A DNA stretch of 58,863 nt, the filler included, from Malassezia furfur (taxonomy: Eukaryota): the NCBI GenBank assembly GCA_052055015.1. It is 2 parts of 2 records of this genome, joined end to end, with 100 filler letters (N's around TTAATTAATTAA, not from the genome) between each part and the next. Parts side by side here need not be neighbours in the genome. Positions count along the whole stretch, not along the records: positions 29,490 to 58,863 come from JBQJIT010000105.1; 1 more part is not named here. One strand, given 5' to 3'. Within the stretch, counting starts at the first letter, position 1. Each line of letters begins with the position of its first letter. The notes beneath the pieces are model-generated. The model had not been told where the DNA came from, did no database searches, and saw nothing but the letters and a program-made list of their open reading frames with translations. The translations under genes were made by a program, and so were the position numbers. Shown here piece after piece: positions 18,085 to 56,968 of this stretch.

Positions 18085-21000
18085 ATGGGGGCCACGGACG
18101 ATCGATGGGTGCCTCCGCGACAGACACAGTGCGCGTTTGCGCATGCGAGTCTCGGAAACGTGCACCGGATCGAATGGCGTAAACTCACTGCAAAAGACGG
18201 CGCGAGCGGTGCAATTGACCAGCTCGCACGGGCGGCGCAGCACATGCAGAAGCAAGCGGCCGCCGCGCGTACGTTCTGTTCGGCGACGAGCGCACCCGCG
18301 CAGGTGCTCCAGCTGCTGCAGTATGCTTCGCTCTATCACCTCGAGTCAGTTTCGGATGAGCAGGTGTTGTGGCTTTTTCAGCTGCCTGAGGGACCGTCGA
18401 TTGTGCCGGACGCGGCCTTAGAGGGGCTGGAAGGTACGTGCGCTGACTGACGCAGTGCATGAGGCGGGCGAGTACGTTGTGCAAAGCGCGACGCAGACCC
18501 CCACGTTGGCGCACACGCGCTTCCTCGAGGCGGTTCAAGCGGCCGTCGCCGATGCCTATGTCGACAGCACCGACGACGCCGTGCGTTGCAGCTCCGGCGT
18601 TTTTTTACCCCATGACGCGACGCTCGTTCGTTTCCGAGCACATACTACCCAGACGAACCTTGTTGTGAGTATGGGGACAGAGGCGATGCCGTGGCAGCCG
18701 CTCGCGATGGAGTACGAGGCTGGTGATATGCCCGTCACCCGGCCGGAAGAAAAGCCGATCGTACTGCTCCCGTCGTTGGCACCCGCGACGTTTCTGGGCG
18801 CGGTGCCATATACGTCCACACCATCGGCCATGCGGCTTTCCGACGCACTCAAAGGTTCCCTATCTCAGACGCACGCAGACGATACAGCACTATGTCGTGT
18901 GCGCGTACTGATCCACGCGCCGCCGAGTGCGCTTCCGACTGACGCGCTCGATATGGGTCTCGAAATGGGCCAGGACGCCATCTCGGTAACGCTTTCGTGG
19001 CCTGCAGCGCTGTGTCTGCAACGCGTGCCGAGTACACAGGCAAGCGACGCACTTGTTCCGCTGCGTGAGCAGAGTGTCATGGCTTTGCTGAATGCAGCAC
19101 GCGCACCAGCAGCGCCGCGGACGCCGCCACATGCGCCGCTGCTGCCCGACGTGCATGTACACGGCCCTGGTGCGCCGCTCGCCGCCAACGAGCTGGACGA
19201 CGACGTGTTCCAAGGGATTGGGCAGCTGACCGAGGACGACCTCCGCTTCTTTGATGGCCCGGGCGAGGCGCCAACTCCGCACAATATGCCGCTCATCCAG
19301 GGTCCCGGTGCGCCCGAAGCGACGGCGCGTGCCGATGTGGAGCTCAAGTCGGTGTCGGAGCTCGACACCGAGCCCCGGTCCGTGTCAGAGCACGACGTCG
19401 AGACGGCACCGGCGCCGGTACCGCAAGACGCCTCCAGTCCGCCGCCGGCCGCGGCGCTCGCTCCGCCGCCGCTCCCCGTGCTCAAGTCGTCGAGCCCCGT
19501 GTATACCCCCAGCGCGTGGTCGCCTGAGCGCAGCGCGCGCCTCGCGGACAAATACGACGTGCATGGCAAGTTTTACACGCCGTCGGCGCTGCGCGACCGC
19601 AAGCGCGCGCACTCGTTCGAGGCCGACGAGCGGCGTACCGCGATGCGCCTTTCGCCGCGCACCTCGACGCCGCAGAGCACGGCGCTGAGCTCGCCGTCGA
19701 CACATGTCTCGCCGTCGGACTCGTCGGGCTCGTCGGACGACGAGCCGGATGTGCCATTGACTATGCGTGCCGCATTGCTCTACCGACTGCACACGAGCGC
19801 ATGGGCGCCGCCGCCCGCGCCACTGAAGCACGAGGCCGCGCCAGCGTCCGAGCAGGCGCGCCTTGCGTCGGCAGCACTCGGCCACGTCCTTGCACCGGCC
19901 GCTCGCGCAACGCTCCCCACATGGGGCGCCTTGTCCACTACGTGTGCCGCCGTGCGGCTCGCGACGCCGCGTCTGCTCGTCGGATGCCAGCGTGCGGTCG
20001 TCGAAGTGGACGCTGACGCCATGGATGCCTGGCCGACGCTCGGGCTCGAGCCTGTCGACGGCCCCAAGCGCATGCACGTCGCAGCCGTGCTGGTTGGCGA
20101 CGTAGACACGGCAGCAGTGCGCGAATGGCTCGTGGGACTGCAGCGCACGTATGCGCGCCTGCGCATGGGCAGTTTGTCGCCGTGCGACGTGTATGTTCTG
20201 CGCAACAGGCACCTTGAACACACCACGGGGCAGTCCGCCGCACTCGTCGACGCATTCCAGGCGGCGTCGCCCGCGGACGCACGCGCAGTGCTCGTTGTAC
20301 ATGCACCGGACGCACAGCATGCGGCCGAGCAGGCGTACGAGATGTGGCACAGCGCGCACACTGTGCTGCCGGTGCCGCGCGCGGCGGTGCAGCCGGCCGC
20401 GACGCAGCAGCCCGCATACCTTGCGCAGCAGGTGCATGCGCTCTACAATGCTGCAGCGCGTGCGCACAGCCAGATGCGGCCTACTGCCGCGTTGGCGCCG
20501 TCACACTACGACCCGTGCCGCTACCTGCGCCCGCGGTGTGCCCTGCGCCTCGACGCGCGCGACGGGCCGCACGAGGTGTTGCAGCACGGAGCGGTGCTGC
20601 ACGTTGCGTACGAGGTGCGTGAGCGTGCGCGCGGCATGTGTGTGCGTGTCGCTGGCATCGACGACCGTGCACAGCGCACCTTTTTGCACGCCTGGACGGC
20701 GACCGACGCCGATGCGGACGTCGCCCGGGTTTGGGAAACCGCATGTAAGGAGATGCACGAGGCCGTCGGTGTCTCATGGCACGTCATCGTGAGCCGCGCT
20801 GGAGCAATGCCGCCAGACGAGGTGCGCGCATGGGCGGCACTCAACGCATCCGGCACGCTCCGCCGCGACCGGTGCGCGCTCGACGTAGTCGTCGTATGCG
20901 TCGAGCTCGGGGCGCCGCTACTGCCGTGTGCCGCGCTGGACGGCACACCACATGCGGTGCTCGCGGGCGAGCGCATGGCCATTCTGCAGGAGCCGCTCGT

Positions 21001-29389: not shown

Positions 29390-29489
29390 NNNNNNNNNNN
29401 NNNNNNNNNNNNNNNNNNNNNNNNNNNNNNNNNTTAATTAATTAANNNNNNNNNNNNNNNNNNNNNNNNNNNNNNNNNNNNNNNNNNNN
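29390..29489. other. Assembly gap / artificial linker (44 N + TTAATTAATTAA + 44 N)
   Basis: N runs flank a 12-mer giving stops in all six frames (29434-29445). Confidence 0.97.
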
Positions 29490-30376
29490 CCATTGCAGCC
29501 GGTGCATCCGATAATCGCAGGTGCGCCGCCGACGCCCACGCCGCGCGGGCTGGCACACCCACCGCGGGCCACTGGCGAGCTCGGACGCGACGTCCAGCGC
29601 CTCAGAAAACGTGTGCATCACCGCATCGAGCGCGCCGGGCGGCGCATCGTCGCACGTCGGCAGTGCGTACCGATGCCAGAGTTGCGCTGCGTCAGCCGCC
29701 GCACGTACCTGCACGGGTCATCGCAGGATACGCGTCTTGCGCCATGTACGCATCCAGGTCATTGCCGCACAGCACCAGCCCACGCAGCTGCACCGCATCC
29801 CAGTTGGCACGCAGCACCGCCTCGTACAGCGCACGGGGGCATTTCGGCATGTACACGAGCGTCGGGCGGTCCAGGGTATATTCCCCGCACTGGTCAGCCG
29901 CACGCACGTACTTTGTTTTGCGCCGGAAGTGCCATGCCTAGACGCGCAACCAGCGCGCAGTCCTGCGCATCAAACAGCGGATCGTAGATCGTCACGGCGC
30001 ACAGACCCGGGGGGTGTTGCTGCGTGAGCACAGGTCGTACCTCGAGGCGCGCACGGAATGCCAGCACCATCGCCAGCTGGAACTGCGCCGCGGACGTGTC
30101 GAGCTTGCCGATTCCGAGGCACAGCAGGCGCTCGGGCGCCTCCTTGCGCGCACGCAAAGCATTGACGACCGCTGCGTCAGTGCACCACCTACCGTCCAGG
30201 CGCGCGCGCGCTTGGTCGTACTCAAGCTGCGCTAGCTTCGCCTCGATGGCCGCGACAAGGCCTTCAATGTGTACCGCGCGCTCCTCCTCGCTCTGCTCCG
30301 CCCACGTCTTGGGTGCTGCACGCGCAGCGCCCCGCCGGCGCCGGCGCCGCGAAGCAGTCCAGACTTCCTCGCCCAT
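29490..30376 (-). CDS. SRR1/Ber1-like protein, 3' end at gap, spliced
   Basis: LLCLGIGKL...AQFQLAM, IYDPLFDAQD, PTLVYMPKCPRALYEAVLRANW, LCGND, HTFSEA. Introns at 30020-30040, 29890-29911, 29687-29708. Confidence 0.8.
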
Positions 30377-33430: not shown

Positions 33431-35178
33431 ATGGAGCCTGCCAACGACATTCTGGGGCAGGTGCTCGTGGTGAGCGGTGGAAGCGGCTACAATGACCTGG
33501 TTGGCGCTACACCGAATGCGATCTATGTTCTACCAGGTACGTATTTGCGTTCTCATCGCTAGTATCCGACAACGGTGGTGCGTAACAGCAGTCACGAAGC
33601 GATGCTCACACCCTGTCCAGGGTCGTCTTCGGGTAGGTACAACATCTCTGACATCCAGAAATCATTCGCGTACTTGGTATGTATACCTAACTCACGCAGG
33701 CGGCCCATCACTGGGAGATATCCGCTCCCGGCTTGTCCGTCTCGCTGCGATCGCAATGACTCACCGCGATGACTCATGCTTGAGCCAGCCCCATTCGCGA
33801 GAGGCGCTCTACACGCTCTTGATGCATCGGCTCCCTCTTGAGGGATCATCAAGGGCGATTAAGCAGGAATGGATGGATATTCTCGAGGGAAAACATAAAC
33901 TTTGGCGAGGTATCGATCCGGAGAAGCGCGAATGTGTGCGGGGTTTTCTGGTCCAATTCGAAAGCGATGTGCTCCATCGTGCGCACCGAAATTTCAATTT
34001 CCGCGGTGGAAGCATCGGAAACTTTTTCTTGGTCGCGATGCAGCGATTTTTCCGATCGATCCAAAGCGCAATCTTCCTGTTCTCAGCCCTTGTGGGCATA
34101 CAACCGGCGCTACCGGACTGTCGCATCCTCCCTGCCATTAATACGAACAGAACCGTAACCATTGCAGCTATTTTGGATAACGGCGAAAGTATCGTTGGTC
34201 AATGCGAAATTTCTCATCCAAGCGTTCGTCCAACCGCCAATGTTCAAGAGTTTATCTCGAGTCATGTGTCCACGCGACAGCCCTCACCTGAAGCGACACC
34301 CTCCGCATCTGTTCACAATCTTCAGCATCTGGACGTGGTTTCACCTAGCAAGGCGCACGAACAGCTGGTATCGCGCTCGATTGGCATGCAAGGAGGTGCT
34401 TCGGATGCTTCAAGCGCACACAGTATGGAGGAAGCCGAATTCGGAGACGATGATGAGGACAAGGACGAGCACTCAGATTCTGACAATGAAGCGCTCGGAA
34501 ATCTTGCTTTTTCGAAGCTGGACGAAAGTGCGGTTCTGCAATCGCCCATTTCACGTACGTCGTTTGCTAACACAGGCATCTACTATGTGAATGTATGCTT
34601 TTTTTTTTGCTGACCCCAGTCCTTCCGCAACGAGGTGTTCCCGTCCCCTAACCCCGTTTACTTACAGGCGCTCGAGCGGTGCCGCATGCTTGTGTACTCT
34701 TGGTACGTATTTGCCTAATACCAGTGGTTCTCTGTGGACAAGTATCATTCCTTGCCTTGCGTTGCGTGGCATTGCCTCTGCCATCGCGAATTCGCCCACA
34801 CTAGAACACAAGGTTCTACTCCTCAATTCCTCACATGACCGTGAAACCATGGGTATGAATGGAATGGACTTTGTGCGGGCTATCTGTCGGTCACTGAACG
34901 ACCTGGACAAGGAACCAGGTTTCTTACTAGGAACCGGTCCCTATCCAATTCGCAAACTCGTTACCCATGTGGTTTACGTGAGGCAAGGCTCAATATACGT
35001 ACCTGTTGACGAGCTTGAGGTATGTTTCGCAAGGTTCTGACCCAGTCTCTGGGTGTGAAATGTATCCCAGTTGATGCTGAGTACCCCAAGCCTCGCCTTA
35101 ATGAACATCGTGAGTCTTGCCAAATGCGCTTACACAGTCTTGAGGTCTGCCCTCGAATCCATTGCCCTCAACCGCTGA
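33431..35178 (+). CDS. CofD/UPF0052 (YvcK/GlmR, yeast YNL011C-like) family protein, many introns
   Basis: Spliced VLVVSGGSGYN...VLPVSDNGGSSSEIIRVLGGPSLGDIRSRL, GSIGNFFL, IVGQCEISHP, RIYYVN, GSLWTSIIPCL. Confidence 0.82.
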
Positions 35179-47340: not shown

Positions 47341-47458
47341 GTGGCGCGTAGCTGTTCGAATGCGCCGTAGTTTGTATTCATATTGTGGGCAGACACGCGA
47401 CCGGCCAACGAACCCTGGGGCACCGCTCGGCGGAAAGCCACGTGATCCTTCTTCCTCG

Positions 47459-49378
47459 ATGGTCAGACCAAGTGCGGGACTGCGGGTGTCGAGCGTCGTG
47501 TGCCGACACGGCGTGTGGAAGACGCATGCGTCGGTGCCGCGGCTCGCGCGTGCACCGGGTGTACTCCTGGCTATGCGCTCTTTCTCGCTCTGGGGCAACA
47601 GCGGGTCCAACGAGCAGGCGCGCATGACCGCCTGGGCGCAGGTGCAGGATGCCAGGGCGCATGCGGGCACCGGCGCCGAGACGCTTTCGCGCGATGCTGC
47701 GCAAGCGGCTTCGGACGTGCGTGATGGCCTTGCATCGACGAGCGCGTCGCTGCAAAACAACGCGTCGTCTGCGAGTGCTTCGATGCAGGACACGCTCTCC
47801 TCGGTGAGCTCTTCGATGCAGAGCGGATGGGCGAGTGCCAACGCGTCGCTGCAGCAGGGCGTGGCGTCGGCGAAGCAGGGATTTGAGAGTGCTAAGCAGA
47901 CATTGCAGGGCACCAACGCATCCATCGAGAACGGTCTGGCACGTGCGGACGAGTCCATTCAGTCCGGCTGGTCGACGGCCAGCCAGGCTGGCAAGGAGTA
48001 CGCAGCGAGCGCAGGCGATGCTGCGGCGTCGGCAAAGCAGACGCTGCAGGGCGCCAACACCTCGATCGAGAACGGGCTGGCACGTGCGAACGAGTCGATT
48101 CAGTCGAGCTGGGCGAGCGCCACCAAGGCCGGCAAGAACGCCGCGGCGGACGCCGGCGAAGCCTCGCAGAAGTTTGTGGACAGCGCGCGTGAAGGCACCG
48201 CTGAGGTGGCGTCGGATGCGCAGGGTGCGCTCTCGTCGATCCAGGACCGCCTGACGCACGCGAACCACGGCCACGGCAGCGGTATTTTGGCGTCCGAGAG
48301 CGAGGCCATCTCGCAGGCATCGCAGGAGGCCACCTCGGAGCTGACTGCGCACGGTCTGGGTGGCTGGTCGCCGTCGGGGCTCCTGCAGCACCTGCTGGAC
48401 ACGACGCAGTACCTGACGCACCTGCCGTGGTGGGCGACCATCATCCTGGTGACGTGTTTGATCCGTCTGTCGGTGGCGCCGCTGCTCGTGTATGTGCAGG
48501 GCAACTCGATCCGCCTGTCCAACATTCAGCCGCAGATGCAGAATATGCTCAAGGACCTCGAGTATGCCAAGGCCACGGGTAACCAGCAGGAGATGCAGCG
48601 GGCGGCCGTGCAGGTGCGCAAGCTGCTGGCGGACAACAACTGCTCGCCGTTCCGTTCGCTGCTGCTGCCTGCGGTGCAGATGCCCATCTTCCTGTCGTTC
48701 TACTTCGCGCTGGACGGTATGGCCAGGGCCAAGCTCCCCGCGCTTGTCGCTGGCGGCTTTGGCTGGGTGCCTGACCTGACGGTGGCCGACCCGTACTATG
48801 TGCTGCCCATTACGTCGGCGTTCATGACCCTGCTCGTGCTCGAGACCGGTGCCGAGACGGGCACCACGGCGATGAACCAGACCAAGCAGGCGCGCATGGT
48901 CAAGAACCTGCTGCGCGGTGTCACGGTGCTGGCCGCGTGGTTTGTGTCCAACTTCCCTGCGGCTGTGCTGCTGTACTGGACGACGACGAACACGTTCTCG
49001 CTGGTGCAGCTGCTCGTGCTGCGTACGCGCTTCATGAAGCGCCTGCTCAAGCTCCCCGAGCGTGTGCAGCACCCGGTGCAGCCGCACGTCAAGCAGCAGT
49101 CGTTCATGGAGGGCCTGCGTTCCGGCATGGCGAGCGGCAGTGCGCACCCGAACTCGGCGGCGTCCGCGCGTCGTCCGCCGCCCGCAAGCCTGTACAAACG
49201 CGGGGGTGAGCGCCCCGTCGAGGCCGACACGCGCAACCGTGCACTGGACAGTATGCTCTCGTCCAAGCCCGGTGCGGACAAGGCTGCATCGGCCGCCCCG
49301 ACTGGCGACGACGCTGCCGCCGAGAAGCAGTCGCGCCTTGCGGCCGCCCGCGAGCGCCGCTTGCGCCAACGGAATTAG
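47459..49378 (+). CDS. OXA1: Mitochondrial inner membrane insertase Oxa1 with long N-terminal repeat insert
   Basis: Presequence ending RSFSLW, GLGGWSPSG, LPWWATII, QMPIFLSFY, WVPDLTVADPYYVLP, LYWTTTN. Confidence 0.88.
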   Translation: MVRPSAGLRVSSVVCRHGVWKTHASVPRLARAPGVLLAMRSFSLWGNSGSNEQARMTAWAQVQDARAHAGTGAETLSRDAAQAASDVRDGLASTSASLQNNASSASASMQDTLSSVSSSMQSGWASANASLQQGVASAKQGFESAKQTLQGTNASIENGLARADESIQSGWSTASQAGKEYAASAGDAAASAKQTLQGANTSIENGLARANESIQSSWASATKAGKNAAADAGEASQKFVDSAREGTAEVASDAQGALSSIQDRLTHANHGHGSGILASESEAISQASQEATSELTAHGLGGWSPSGLLQHLLDTTQYLTHLPWWATIILVTCLIRLSVAPLLVYVQGNSIRLSNIQPQMQNMLKDLEYAKATGNQQEMQRAAVQVRKLLADNNCSPFRSLLLPAVQMPIFLSFYFALDGMARAKLPALVAGGFGWVPDLTVADPYYVLPITSAFMTLLVLETGAETGTTAMNQTKQARMVKNLLRGVTVLAAWFVSNFPAAVLLYWTTTNTFSLVQLLVLRTRFMKRLLKLPERVQHPVQPHVKQQSFMEGLRSGMASGSAHPNSAASARRPPPASLYKRGGERPVEADTRNRALDSMLSSKPGADKAASAAPTGDDAAAEKQSRLAAARERRLRQRN

Positions 49379-51776: not shown

Positions 51777-54192
51777 ATGAGCGCACATGCAGCGAGTGCG
51801 GTCGCGCCTGTGCGGCGCGCCGACGACCCCGCGGCGCGGTCTGCGGCGCCTGCGCGTGCTCCGCTAGAGCGTACGTTGCACCGACTCACTCGCAGCGCTG
51901 TATTTGGAGCCGGGCCCACTGAACCGCCTGTACCTCTCGGTGTGCTCGGGGATTCCGTCGCAGGTCGCCTGGGCGCTCGCGCGTCTTGCGCTATACACGC
52001 AGCAGCTTGGCGACCGCTTCCAACTCGCCGACTACCCCGGGCTAGATGAAGCGTTGGTGCGCCTCGTGCGCCGCTTGACGCTCGCACTGCAGGGAGCGCC
52101 GCGCGCCGATTGGGACGACGACGTGCCCGACGTCACCGCGAGCAACCTGCGCGTCGACCAAGGCATCGGTGCCCCCGGCGAGAACGGCGGTATGGATCTT
52201 GCTGCAACGCACGTCGCATTTGCGCGCGCGCGCGCGCCCGAGGCGGTGCCTGCGGCATTTGCACCGCAGCAGGTCACGCGCGATGCAACGCTGCTCCAGC
52301 ACGCGGCGGGCGCCGCTCTCGTCCTGCGCAATGTCGTACTGAGCGCCGCGAATGCAGCACAGCTTACTGTGGTGCCCGGTGTGCTGCAGGTGGTGTACGA
52401 GCTCGCGCACGCCACGATCGATGCGCCCGTTTCGCTCCGGGGGGGTGCATGGGCCGACGTGCGCGGCAATGCGCTCGACATCCTCGAGGCGCTCGCGCCG
52501 CGCATCGTGCTAAGCGAGTGGGTACGCGTAACGTACGGCCAGCGCACGGCGCCCGAGCCGCGCGCCGCACCGACGCGCACCGAGGACCAGGTGTTTGCGA
52601 TGCTGCACACCCTCCTACACACGACGCGTGACCGTGCGCTGCTGCTCGCGAGTCTGCGATGTCTGCGCGCGATCGCGATGAACGAGGCCAATGTGCCGCA
52701 GCTCGTGGACGCCACGCCGCAGCTCGAGCCGACGCAGCTAGGGCTCACGGCGCGGTGTGTTGCGCTGCTGCCGCTCACGCAGGACCCGGAACTGCTTGAG
52801 GCGGCCGTCGACTTGCTGTACCAGATCGCGGCTACGGGCGAGAACGCGCTGCTCCTCGGCACGCTCACGCTCGCGGACGTGTGCGACGCGGGCTACGGCA
52901 CGGGCCTCGCGCGCCGTGCGCTGCACGAGGTGGACACGGCGGCCGACGAGTGCGCGCCGACAGACACGTCGCTGGCGCGTGCGGTCGTGGCGTACCTCGC
53001 GCGCAACGTCGACCTTGGCAAGACGGTGTGGGAGCGCGACTCGGTGATGAGCGCCAACACGAGCGCCGCATGGGCAGCTCACGTCCCGAGCGCCGCGCGC
53101 ACGCGTCGCGAACGCGAGCGCGAGCGCCGCCTGCGCAAGGAGCACGCCACGCCGCAGGAGCGCGCCAAGTGGAAGGAGCTGACGCGCGACGAGCTCGAGC
53201 GTCTCCGGTGGCTGGACGAGCCGGTGCGCGGCATTGAATGGTGCGTGCGTGATTGACGCAGGATGCAGTTGCTGTTTGAGCGCGATCCCCAGGGCGAGGT
53301 GACGCAGATGGAGTTCTGGATTGCGTACCGCGACCAGTTTACGCCGATCGCCGCCGAGGGCGGCGTTGCCCTGCAGCCCGCGGCGAACCTGATTCGCAAT
53401 GTGTCGCAAACCTTCCCGGGGGCGGCGGCGGTGGTCATCCCGTCGACAATGGGCGCACAGCCGCGCTTTATCATCCGCGGCATCTCGGTGCGCGACCGCA
53501 GTATGCCGCGCATCGAGTGTGCGTGGGAGGCGTGCCCGGCGCCGCACGTCGGCGACTGGGACGCCGTACGCGAGCACCTCGCCGTGCACGCCCAGGCGGC
53601 GCGCGACGGACAGTGCCGCTGGCGCTCGTGTGCGTACGCGGTCGACCCGCGCGACCCGCACCGCGCTGTACGGCTGTATGCGCACGCGCTGACACACACG
53701 CCACGCGATACGCCCATGGCCACGGCGCAGCCCGCCGAGGGCACGCAGGAGAGCCCGGGTGTGATCACATTCACCGTCGAGCGCACGCCGTCGGTGCCGA
53801 ATGCGACGCCAGGCGAGGCGCCGCTGCCGTGCGGCGTCGCGTTCCTCTCGGCGCTCGTGCTGCGCTTCGTGGCGCGCGCGGCCCACAATGTGCTCAAAAG
53901 CGCAGGGCAGGGGTGCCCACCACAGACGTACGGCGGAGCACAGGAGGCCGCCGCACAGCCAGGCGACCGCGACGAGCGATTCGGGTGCCCCGTGCCGCGC
54001 TCCGTGCAGGACGCGATGCAGGACGCCGCGCAGCAGGCATCTGCGCTCTCGCCGCGGCACATGGCCGCCGCGACGACGATCATGGAAGCCCTGGCGCTCG
54101 CGGAAGAGGGTATGGTACAAAGCTCGTTGCGGAACGACATCCTATGTCGTCTACTGAACGATATTCTCGTGGCCATCCGGCCCGTAGCGTAG
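51777..54192 (+). CDS. RSC9: RSC chromatin remodelling subunit Rsc9 (ARM repeats + RFX-like domain), spliced
   Basis: GPLNRLYLSVCSGIPSQVAWAL, W|MQLLFERDPQGEVTQMEFWIAYRDQF, AANLIRNVSQTFPGA, RFIIRGI, C/H zinc-finger-like segment. Confidence 0.82.
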
Positions 54193-54401: not shown

Positions 54402-56909
54402 TCAAGACGATGGCGACGATGCAGGGGCATCCGTCGAGGCGGCAGGAGGGTCCGTTGCGGAAGGTTCCGAGGCGGCGGGCTCCTTTGCAGGGTCTTTCTC
54501 CGCGGCAGCGTCGTTCGCGGGCTCCTCGCCCTGACGCATCTCCGCCGAGGCGTCCTTCGCGGCGGTCTCCGCACCCTTGGAGGCTTCTGCCTGTGGGTGC
54601 TCCGCGATGGATTCTTCGCCCTTTGGCGCCTCAGCGGAGGCGTCCTTCGCCGCGTTCTCGTTCGTCCCGGCCCCAGATGCATCCGCAGGCGGTGCGGCGC
54701 CGTCTTTGGACACGGATTTGAACACATGCCGCTGAACAATGCCCTCGCAGTGCGCCAGCTCGTCCATGAGCTCCTGCTGCACCTGCTGAAACGTGTGCAC
54801 ATACTCAGCGAGCGCCGCACGCAGGTCCGCGACCTTTTCGCGCTCGAACCGCTGCATCTCCTTCTTGCACAGCGCCGAGACATCCTCAAAGCGGTTCTGC
54901 AGCGCGGCACTCACAAGCTCGGCATTCGACACCGCGCGCATCTGCGCATCGATGTGCCCATTCGCCGTGCGCTTGTGCCGCGTCTTGAGCTTGGCGAGGT
55001 CGTCGTCGGCGCGCTGCCACGCATTCCACACGTCGATGCGCGTCGCAAACGCCTTGCGGACGCTGCCGATCAACCGCTCATACTCGTAAAATACAAGCTG
55101 GAGGACGTGCGACTCGTGCGACGCCAGCCGCATCGACGCCTCCGCACTGCGCTTCTTGAGCTCCGCAAGCGCACCAAAGCACGTCGACACGCTGCGCGAC
55201 AAGGCGCCGCCGGACAGCGTGACGAGGTGCTTGTACAGCACGGTTTGCGCCTCCGCAAGTTCTTGGCGCCGCTGAACGAGTGTGTGGATCGCCGCGACAA
55301 TGTCACGCAGGCGCGCCTCAAGCTGCGCGAGGTACTCGAGCTGCTGGTTGAACCACTCGTCCGTCTCGCGGAAGCGCACGTTGTACAGCGACTGGCTCCA
55401 CCCCAGGTACGTCTTTTGCTCGGGCGTCACGACTGCACCCTTGACCGCGTCGCGCGCCTTGATGTCGACCGCGAGGTGCGTGCTCTTGAGGAAGAGCACG
55501 AGGTCTTCGTCCTTCTGCAGCAGGGGATGCTCGAGCATCTTTTGCAGCGCCTGCTCCAACGCACGCTGGCGGAACTCGACGAGGTCGGGCTTCATGTTGT
55601 TCAGCTTGACCTTTTCGGGGATCGGCGGCACCACCACACCGGGGTGGTTGTGTACGAGCGCCGCATGCAGCCAGCGGAACTCGCTGTAGCGCCGCAGCGC
55701 CGACCATTCGGCCGGGCCGCCAAGCCACGCCGCATCGGTGGCCACACGCACCGTGTACACCACGTGGGACGAGACACGGTCGCTGATCCGCTGCGGATTG
55801 CACACGCGCACGGAAAACGTCGCACTCAGCGCAGTGTCATCGCGCGGTGGCGCAGCGGCGAGAGGGGTATCGGTCGGCGAGCGAACGCCGTAGCGCGCCT
55901 CGTCATCGTCCGACGCAGCAGCCGGCGCGTCCGGAGCGGGTTTGTCCTTCGGCGCATCGGCCGGCGCATCGTTCACGTCCTTTGGCGGCGGAGGAGGGCC
56001 GCGGCGCACTAGGTACTCCCGCCACCACGTCGCAAATGCGACGCACTCCATCGGCAGGCCGAGCGCCGCCGAAGCCTGGGTATCGAGCTGGCAGTTGCCA
56101 GGCCGCTGCGTCGTGGCATTGGGGTCCGGTGTCCGCTCGGGTACGAAGTGGTCCGTCGCGATCTTGGTGCCGCACGCCGCTTCCCACGCCGCAGCCATCG
56201 CAAGGCACATGTCGTACTTGGTCATGGGCTCGGCCGCGGAGAAGTGCAGGATCGGCGGGAGCGGCCCCTTATCGTAGGCACACACGGCCAGCAAGAACTG
56301 CGCAACATCGGACACGTTCGTAGGGAACCGCACGCCATGGGCGTCCATCTTGGCCGGCGTCGTCTTCAGCAGGGCGCCCAGCAGCACATTCACGGCCGAC
56401 TCGCCGTCGTATTCCGTGTCGCCGTAGAGCACCGGCACGCGCACGCATGTCGCCTGCCCCGGCTTAGCCGCGGCCGCGATCGCACGCTCCGCATCGAGCT
56501 TGCTCTGCCCATACGCATTGAGGGGGTGCGGTGCGTCGTCTGGGCGGTAGGGCGGGTGGGCCCCGTCGAAGACGTAGTCGGTCGAGAGGTGCACGAGGCG
56601 CGCGGGCCGCTCGAGCGCCGCACATGCTGCCACCAGCTGTGCCGGCACATTGACATTGAGGCGGCGCGCCTCATCCGGGTGTGCCTCCATCGCATCTGGC
56701 CGGCGCTCGGCGGCGGTGTGGATCACCGCGTCCGGCTGGACGTCGGCGAGCAGTGCACGCACCGCGTCGGCGTCACACAGGTCGAGCTTGCGTAGCGCTC
56801 CGTGCGCACGCGAGTGTGCGATGCCGACCACGTCGTCGCCGCGTGCCTGCGCGGCCGCGACGACGGCGCGGCCCAGGAGCCCCGAGGCGCCCGTGACCAG
56901 CACACGCAT
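54402..56909 (-). CDS. Fusion of RmlD/MAT2B-like NAD(P)-binding domain with PX-BAR sorting nexin (Vps5/SNX1-like)
   Basis: VLVTGASGLLG, HTAAERRPD, STDYVFDG, YGQSK, RVPVLYG, then in the same frame PX (HVVYTV, RRYSEFRWLH, PGVVVPPIPEK) and BAR (FRETDEWF, EYERLIGSVRKAF, CKKEMQRFEREKVADLR). Confidence 0.85.
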   Translation of the reverse strand: MRVLVTGASGLLGRAVVAAAQARGDDVVGIAHSRAHGALRKLDLCDADAVRALLADVQPDAVIHTAAERRPDAMEAHPDEARRLNVNVPAQLVAACAALERPARLVHLSTDYVFDGAHPPYRPDDAPHPLNAYGQSKLDAERAIAAAAKPGQATCVRVPVLYGDTEYDGESAVNVLLGALLKTTPAKMDAHGVRFPTNVSDVAQFLLAVCAYDKGPLPPILHFSAAEPMTKYDMCLAMAAAWEAACGTKIATDHFVPERTPDPNATTQRPGNCQLDTQASAALGLPMECVAFATWWREYLVRRGPPPPPKDVNDAPADAPKDKPAPDAPAAASDDDEARYGVRSPTDTPLAAAPPRDDTALSATFSVRVCNPQRISDRVSSHVVYTVRVATDAAWLGGPAEWSALRRYSEFRWLHAALVHNHPGVVVPPIPEKVKLNNMKPDLVEFRQRALEQALQKMLEHPLLQKDEDLVLFLKSTHLAVDIKARDAVKGAVVTPEQKTYLGWSQSLYNVRFRETDEWFNQQLEYLAQLEARLRDIVAAIHTLVQRRQELAEAQTVLYKHLVTLSGGALSRSVSTCFGALAELKKRSAEASMRLASHESHVLQLVFYEYERLIGSVRKAFATRIDVWNAWQRADDDLAKLKTRHKRTANGHIDAQMRAVSNAELVSAALQNRFEDVSALCKKEMQRFEREKVADLRAALAEYVHTFQQVQQELMDELAHCEGIVQRHVFKSVSKDGAAPPADASGAGTNENAAKDASAEAPKGEESIAEHPQAEASKGAETAAKDASAEMRQGEEPANDAAAEKDPAKEPAASEPSATDPPAASTDAPASSPSS

Positions 56910-56968
56910 GGAGGCGGAAACGGAAGACCCACGTGACGCCCCGCGCGCGCGTCGCGGTGGAGGGCGTC

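Follow-up and report, generated by a model that had tools for sequence, protein, structure and literature searches.

We analyzed a 58,863-nucleotide (nt) stretch of the Malassezia furfur genome assembly GCA_052055015.1 (here called the window), in which one intronless open reading frame (ORF) on the minus strand (54402 to 56909) encodes a protein of 835 amino acids (aa). The protein consists of a MAT2B-like reductase, a linker, the PX and BAR domains of the retromer sorting nexin Vps5, and a disordered tail. No stop codon interrupts the 835 codons, and three Pfam domains match in order, i.e., RmlD_sub_bind (PF04321; aa 1 to 283; E = 1.9e-56), PX (PF00787; aa 400 to 476; E = 1.2e-21), and Vps5 (PF09325; aa 510 to 716; E = 1e-42). 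A pattern search of the frame for the branch-point-like sequence RCTRAC found none in the whole ORF, and 17 intron-like elements of 21 to 35 nt were matched elsewhere in the window. The NCBI Vps5 model of M. furfur differs from the window protein at 1 of 835 residues. An earlier note, made from the sequence alone, had proposed an in-frame fusion of a reductase to a PX-BAR protein with no stop or intron at the junction, and these data bear it out. We conclude that the fusion is genuine and ancient.

The reductase is an extended short-chain dehydrogenase/reductase (SDR) domain spanning aa 1 to 303 (56001 to 56909; PF04321, fold match, and substitution rates). As the earlier note had stated, the domain is complete: the GxxGxxG cofactor loop (aa 7 to 13; 56871 to 56891) and the catalytic-type residues S109-T110 and Y133xxxK137 (56499 to 56585) are present and conserved in an alignment of 36 fused proteins. 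S109, T110, Y133, and K137 are invariant (36/36), and the glycines G7, G10, and G13 are kept in 34 of the 36 rows, the other 2 being gapped there. The disordered Pro/Ala/Asp linker (aa 304 to 362; 55824 to 56000) is free of methionine. The Met at position 287 is followed only by that at position 439, i.e., there is none between the end of the SDR domain and the middle of the PX domain, also as noted earlier. An acidic-YG-x-P/R-S/T-P motif, conserved and found in Ustilaginomycotina Vps5 only, lies within the linker (aa 334 to 345; 55875 to 55910). The PX domain (aa 363 to 477; 55479 to 55823) has an intact RRY and downstream K/R lipid-binding residues (R406, R407, Y408, K433, and R447; 36/36 aligned proteins) and is followed by a BAR domain of the Vps5/SNX1 type (aa 478 to 732; 54714 to 55478; PF09325 and fold matches) and the low-complexity C-terminal tail (54402 to 54713).

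A second fused copy on contig C89 encodes 802 aa, likewise in one frame. The copies differ by five gaps, each of a length divisible by 3, including an 18-nt in-frame gap in the linker, at a synonymous divergence (dS) of approximately 0.6. The ratio of nonsynonymous to synonymous substitution rates (dN/dS) is 0.084 for the reductase, 0.39 for the linker, 0.025 for PX, 0.039 for BAR, and 0.52 for the tail, with purifying selection on every domain. Because the second, diverged copy is also a single frame with frame-keeping gaps and low dN/dS, the fusion is no sequencing accident; the stop or frameshift that the earlier note had raised as a concern is absent from both copies. The two strong Vps5 matches and the two strong RmlD-family matches in the 13.7-Mb genome are these same two fused genes, on C105 and C89, and the remaining matches to either profile score 28 to 36 bits versus 147 to 199 bits for the fused genes. 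We take the fused gene to be the sole Vps5 and the sole MAT2B-like reductase of the lineage. Many other genes also occur as two diverged copies (contig pairs C105/C89, C174/C160, C38/C34, C178/C257, and C307/C463), as expected for a hybrid; the SAM synthetase has one match, and Vps35 has two partial matches.

Distribution and ancestry of the fusion

A homolog search in which 8000 candidates were scored yielded 125 passing sequences. Among the best 120, 78 are nearly complete in both parts, 7 are truncated in one of them, 14 consist of PX-BAR only (most starting inside the linker), and 21 are reductases alone or reductases merged with other domains. Fused named models were found in 14 Malassezia taxa, Tilletia, Exobasidium, Pseudozyma, Tilletiaria, Parajaminaea, Sympodiomycopsis, Sporisorium, Ustilago, Melanopsichium, Kalmanozyma, Ceraceosorus, Testicularia, and Moesziomyces. 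The Ustilago maydis model is UMAG_05287 (1249 aa), and that of Malassezia sympodialis is SHO77349 (779 aa), which we take to be a product of the curated annotation of this species. Manual curation of the M. sympodialis annotation drew on RNA-seq and peptides (PMC5389616). A fused sequence filed under Cichorium endivia (P0080), which is 85% identical to a Moesziomyces protein, is probably fungal contamination of a plant assembly. Other merged MAT2B-like proteins (P0104, P0107, P0108, P0110, P0100, and P0102) carry BAR-PH in one Rhodotorula, Rot1 in several members of Wallemia, or ankyrin in Mucorales and may be gene-model merges or independent fusions.

Among the best 120 of 3451 matches shorter than 459 aa, 107 are free reductases of approximately 300 aa from other fungi or from sources without a name, representing Agaricomycotina, Pucciniomycotina, Mucoromycota, Zoopagomycota, and chytrids; the 13 that rank highest are pieces of the Ustilaginomycotina type. 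A PX-BAR search (best 150 matches) added 134 new Vps5/SNX1 representatives, none of which carries the reductase (five have a named source, namely, Schizophyllum, Rhizoctonia, Cryptococcus, a Microbotryomycete, and Cronartium). In quick trees of chosen rows, rooted at the midpoint only and made without bootstrap, Ustilaginomycotina formed one side of a branch for both the reductase (33 of 55 rows; IQ-TREE; Shimodaira-Hasegawa-like approximate likelihood ratio test, 99) and PX-BAR (31 of 55 rows; FastTree support, 100), with long stem branches of 0.69 and 0.38, respectively. A single fusion in the ancestor of Ustilaginomycotina would be the simplest reading of these sequences, and a single origin is not rejected by the trees. 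The fusion provides a clean shared marker of this subphylum. Genome compaction in Malassezia, which the earlier note had offered as an origin, is not the cause, because the fusion is subphylum-wide, including smuts with linkers of 293 to 477 aa, and both halves form one Ustilaginomycotina group in the trees.

A census of PX domains published in 2010 lists RmlD_sub_bind among the PX-associated domains with a count of 1, in a column that we read as fungi, and includes U. maydis in its species list (PMC2837644). In its accessible text, the census names no protein or species for this entry and does not comment on distribution, origin, or function. In the searchable literature, with most subscription journals and preprint supplements outside our reach, neither a description of a reductase-Vps5 fusion beyond the census entry nor a paper on UMAG_05287 was found. 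The architecture is widespread within one subphylum, a possibility that had been raised as an objection, and the second part of that objection (i.e., that it is already described) applies only as far as the census entry.

The junction intron and the linker

The junction in M. furfur coincides with the site of a phase-0 intron of several relatives, six codons past a pair of tryptophans (WW; 56003 to 56004, intronless here). In 17 unspliced calls of the Ustilaginaceae type, WW is followed by six residues, a Val, and then a stop eight codons on, and the spliced NCBI models of the same species run on into a charged helix. The break falls at the same codon in Violaceomyces (P0132) and in a call of the Microstromatales type (P0133). 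A metagenome scan with a smut reductase returned 23 loci, of which one is fungal (L013); this contig has a GTGAGT donor at the junction site in its DNA and ends inside the intron. The two halves are called separately in Ustilago hordei, on equally long contigs. Contigs of the U. maydis cluster (Logan, ENA) have an unbroken junction, and none of the 15 members listed (of 18) is a 318-aa form. Free fungal reductases stop at a median of 8 residues past the WW motif (106 of 107 parsed).

A donor just ahead of the ancestral stop is as expected from read-through transcripts spliced past the stop into VPS5, suggesting that the fusion was born by splicing past an old stop codon. The reductase gene would have come to lie just upstream of VPS5, and read-through transcripts would have been spliced from a donor in the last reductase codons, skipping the stop, into VPS5. 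The junction intron would then have persisted in several lineages and been lost in Malassezia and probably in U. maydis, fixing one open frame. The likely birth of the fusion would thus still be visible in its relatives. We rejected as a relic of the intron the donor-like GTG found at codon 301, as it lies two codons before the ancestral site and is missing in the second copy. A peroxisomal signal in the retained-intron tail was rejected as weak, with 0 of 11 distinct tails fitting the small-basic-Leu pattern of such signals.

Linker length varies ninefold, from 53 to 156 aa in Malassezia versus 293 to 477 aa in other smuts. All 17 non-Malassezia proteins checked have a proline-free segment in which E, K, R, A, and Q make up 83 to 97% of 70 residues, and an RPTPP motif is present in all 25 non-Malassezia linkers versus none of 28 Malassezia linkers. 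Malassezia shortened the linker and lost the charged helix together with the RPTPP motif. The acidic-YG motif is found in 94 of the 96 PX-BAR-bearing matches, with Y340, G341, and P345 kept in 36/36 aligned fused proteins; among 132 further representatives, it occurs in 2, both smut-type fragments. No other linker element is retained throughout, and the motif is specific to the lineage. The motif is similar to that of SNX3/Grd19, in which acidic residues and then Y-G-x-P stand in a disordered stretch ahead of PX (DDMYGVP in the Snx3 of this genome). In Snx3, however, the tyrosine lies approximately 7 residues before the PX strand, whereas in fused Vps5 the distance is 18 to 119 residues (one outlier, 396) and S/T-P follows. 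The substitution Y22A in SNX3 abolishes binding to VPS35 (PMC6137200). The resemblance to this retromer-binding tyrosine motif is only a lead, and the element could equally be a phosphorylation site. A complex prediction that paired linker aa 322 to 361 with M. furfur Vps26 and the first 305 aa of Vps35 scored 0.02 against a mark of 0.34; it was run without alignments and calibrated without peptides and so weighs neither way.

The two halves and the meaning of their link

The closest solved relative of the reductase is human MAT2B (E = 9e-55; 189 bits), and its fold matches 9qpp/2ydx (root mean square deviation, 1.6 to 2.1 Å). The best RmlD-named entry reaches 69 bits (E = 4e-18), so that the closest relationship is not to RmlD (dTDP-4-dehydrorhamnose reductase): bacterial RmlD shares the Pfam family, the fold, and a catalytic-type triad but is far more distant (21 to 25% identity; E = 4e-18 or weaker). 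Nothing points to a part in rhamnose synthesis, although no search aimed at genes of that pathway was made. Judged by sequence and fold, the reductase belongs to an ortholog group of MAT2B-like extended SDRs. Human MAT2B and the free fungal MAT2B-like proteins share with it approximately 40% identity, the fold, GxxGxxG, S/T, and YxxxK; the fused domain differs in that it has no free C terminus, lacks the Val-Phe-His tail of human MAT2B, and is joined to a membrane-shaping coat protein. R34, kept in 35 of 36 aligned fused proteins, sits after strand 2, where there is no acidic residue, which by SDR family knowledge suggests NADP(H) (nicotinamide adenine dinucleotide phosphate) as the cofactor. 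From the same family knowledge, the domain is probably an active NADP(H)-binding enzyme.

The PX-BAR half groups with named Vps5 outgroups in the tree, which identifies it, at the level of sequence, as the fungal Vps5 ortholog. Its BAR fold matches entries 8afz (the SNX1-SNX5 coat) and 6h7w (retromer-Vps5), and the predicted set of residues binding phosphatidylinositol 3-phosphate (PI3P) in PX is complete. Two further, weak PF09325 matches in the genome look Vps17-like, a label that we assign presumptively, and Vps35, Vps26, and Vps29-like genes are also present. AlphaFold2 run on the 36-row alignment gave a predicted local distance difference test (pLDDT) score of 82, with aa 310 to 359 and the tail below 50, and a predicted template modeling score (pTM) of 0.50. 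This pTM and the disordered linker in the model are what would be expected if the reductase and PX-BAR fold as two independent units. Like other Vps5 proteins and metazoan SNX1-SNX2, the fusion has PX and BAR domains with intact lipid-binding residues; unlike them, it carries a folded 300-aa enzyme ahead of the disordered N-terminal region.

On balance, we favor a reading in which the protein is a working Vps5 and an independent NADP(H) reductase travels with it to endosomes as a tethered passenger. PI3P binding by PX and pairing of BAR with Vps17 are established for fungal retromer, and the fused protein, which would be made at full length in the cell, would form retromer tubules in the same way as in other fungi. 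The reductase, an NADP(H)-binding enzyme in this model, would fold and work alone and would reach endosomes by way of a spacer that may be a long charged helix plus a disordered region in smuts and a short disordered linker in Malassezia. What mainly preserves the link would be a need for both halves, each of which lacks a copy or promoter of its own. The tethering of an NADP-binding module to endosomal tubules, as proposed in the earlier note, stays the most likely reading; the compaction part of that proposal does not hold, and its SAM-synthetase part is unlikely.

Several observations weigh against this passenger reading and the history proposed for it. Tilletia horrida has four fused, four reductase-only, and three PX-BAR-only accessions; the single-domain models are approximately 70% identical to the fused ones and adjoin them in both trees, and the reductase-only models lack the Val ending at the intron site. 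These forms could have arisen by a later split or could be a free copy produced by duplication; they suggest that the link is not indispensable everywhere. Three sequences (P0097, P0128, and P0134) break at a different place, approximately three codons ahead of WW. Malassezia and several non-Malassezia contigs have an unbroken junction, for which repeated intron losses, a later gain, or spliced templates are needed. The fused protein of intron-bearing relatives is represented by gene models only, Violaceomyces (P0132) is annotated as a free reductase, and the trees have the limits given above. The PL motif in the disordered N terminus of fungal Vps5 binds Vps29, and metazoan SNX1/2 also lack it, according to the accessible text of a preprint (bioRxiv 10.1101/2024.03.24.586500). 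The pattern [DEST]PL[NGL] occurs in none of 28 Malassezia linkers versus 17 of 25 other smut linkers (any PL dipeptide, 9 of 28 versus 23 of 25). With this PL-type Vps29-binding motif missing as judged by the pattern, the question is raised of how Malassezia Vps5 holds retromer. Finally, subphylum-wide survival, the charged helical spacer, and the new invariant motif fit an adaptive role equally well.

An adaptive link, which we regard as possible although less probable, would have the reductase acting at the endosome (e.g., on a local substrate or through NADP(H)-tuned coat assembly) or riding endosomes along hyphae. Retention of the fusion in 78 of the best 120 homologs over three classes, the invariant catalytic residues, the lineage-specific charged proline-free segment and linker motif, and the long stem branches in both trees argue for it. 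It is opposed by the lack of a predicted contact between the halves (pTM, 0.50), the ninefold variation in linker length, and the possible split in a Tilletia lineage. Rather unlikely, in our judgment, is a far-reaching form in which Vps5 has been rebuilt as an enzyme-bearing coat: the tethered NADP(H) reductase would act or sense redox at retromer tubules, the Snx3-like tyrosine motif would have replaced the PL motif, and splice choice would switch between free and endosome-bound enzyme in intron-bearing smuts. If true, it would expose an ancestral SAM-independent job of the MAT2B family. Since deletion of the fused gene removes two activities, vps5 mutants in U. maydis or Malassezia need rereading. 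Tests of location and of split domains are direct in U. maydis, a standard model for moving endosomes.

We consider it quite improbable that the locus makes two products, with intron-bearing smuts producing a free reductase when the intron is retained and the fused protein when it is spliced, and intronless species freeing the halves by proteolysis or not at all. In all 17 Ustilaginaceae-type unspliced calls, the retained intron brings a stop after exactly 8 codons, the tails falling into 11 distinct yet similar sequences, and T. horrida has free reductase models, as this proposal would have it. However, a conserved branch site could account for the fixed stop as a side effect, Violaceomyces, P0133, and L013 do not conserve the tail, and the intron is missing in Malassezia and probably in U. 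maydis.

Binding of human MAT2B to MAT2A depends on a free C-terminal tail buried in the tunnel of the MAT dimer, with the last three residues, Val-Phe-His, as the minimal motif (PMC4107924). A domain that tethers S-adenosylmethionine (SAM) synthetase to endosomes, as MAT2B binds MAT2A in mammals, would accord with human MAT2B being the closest solved relative by sequence and fold and with the SAM synthetase gene in the genome. The free end that it needs is impossible in the fusion, and none of the 107 free fungal orthologs among the best 120 short matches listed ends in Val-Phe-His. Regulation of SAM synthetase in the manner of MAT2B, which the earlier note had entertained, is therefore unlikely here and a weak reading for fungi in general; tethering through a different interface is conceivable, and we rate the tether as a whole as very improbable. 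The fusion offers a handle on the role of the MAT2B family where the known tail cannot bind SAM synthetase. It is hardly credible that the fusion is an artefact of assembly or annotation, or that compaction produced it in Malassezia only: sporadic merged MAT2B-like models do exist (Rot1 in Wallemia, BAR-PH in one Rhodotorula, and ankyrin in Rhizopus), but the two genome copies and clusters of up to 358 sequences taken from related-yeast assemblies have unbroken unspliced frames, the fusion is present in long-linker smuts, and independent assemblies rule out an artefact for Malassezia.

Other features of the window

A 59-bp spacer (56910 to 56968) lies between the start codons of the fusion gene and a head-to-head APC2-like gene and contains a CACGTG box. 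It is identical at 58 of 59 bases to the spacer of the second copy (L005, 5982 to 6040) despite a dS of approximately 0.6. The window shows no enrichment of TCACGTG (5 occurrences versus 12.6 expected), and so no claim is made for this promoter box.

Of the 17 intron-like elements, 11 are only 21 to 22 nt long (GT...CTRAC/TTRAC...AG), at 18434, 34555, 38249, 38736, 41509, 53241, 57878, 57967, and 58532 on the plus strand and at 29708 and 31710 on the minus strand. They are shorter than the mean intron of M. sympodialis (30 bp; PMC5389616), and the element at 53241 contains an in-frame stop between two same-frame ORFs. An ORF of the Oxa1/YidC family (47360 to 49378) has 60KD_IMP at 357 to 554 behind a long, Ser/Ala-rich, repeated helical segment with a weak apolipoprotein match below the cutoff. 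The ORF at 33492 to 34613 matches CofD (2-phospho-L-lactate transferase; E = 3e-8). Contig C104 (1 to 29389) is joined to C105 by a stretch of N's in two runs (29390 to 29489).

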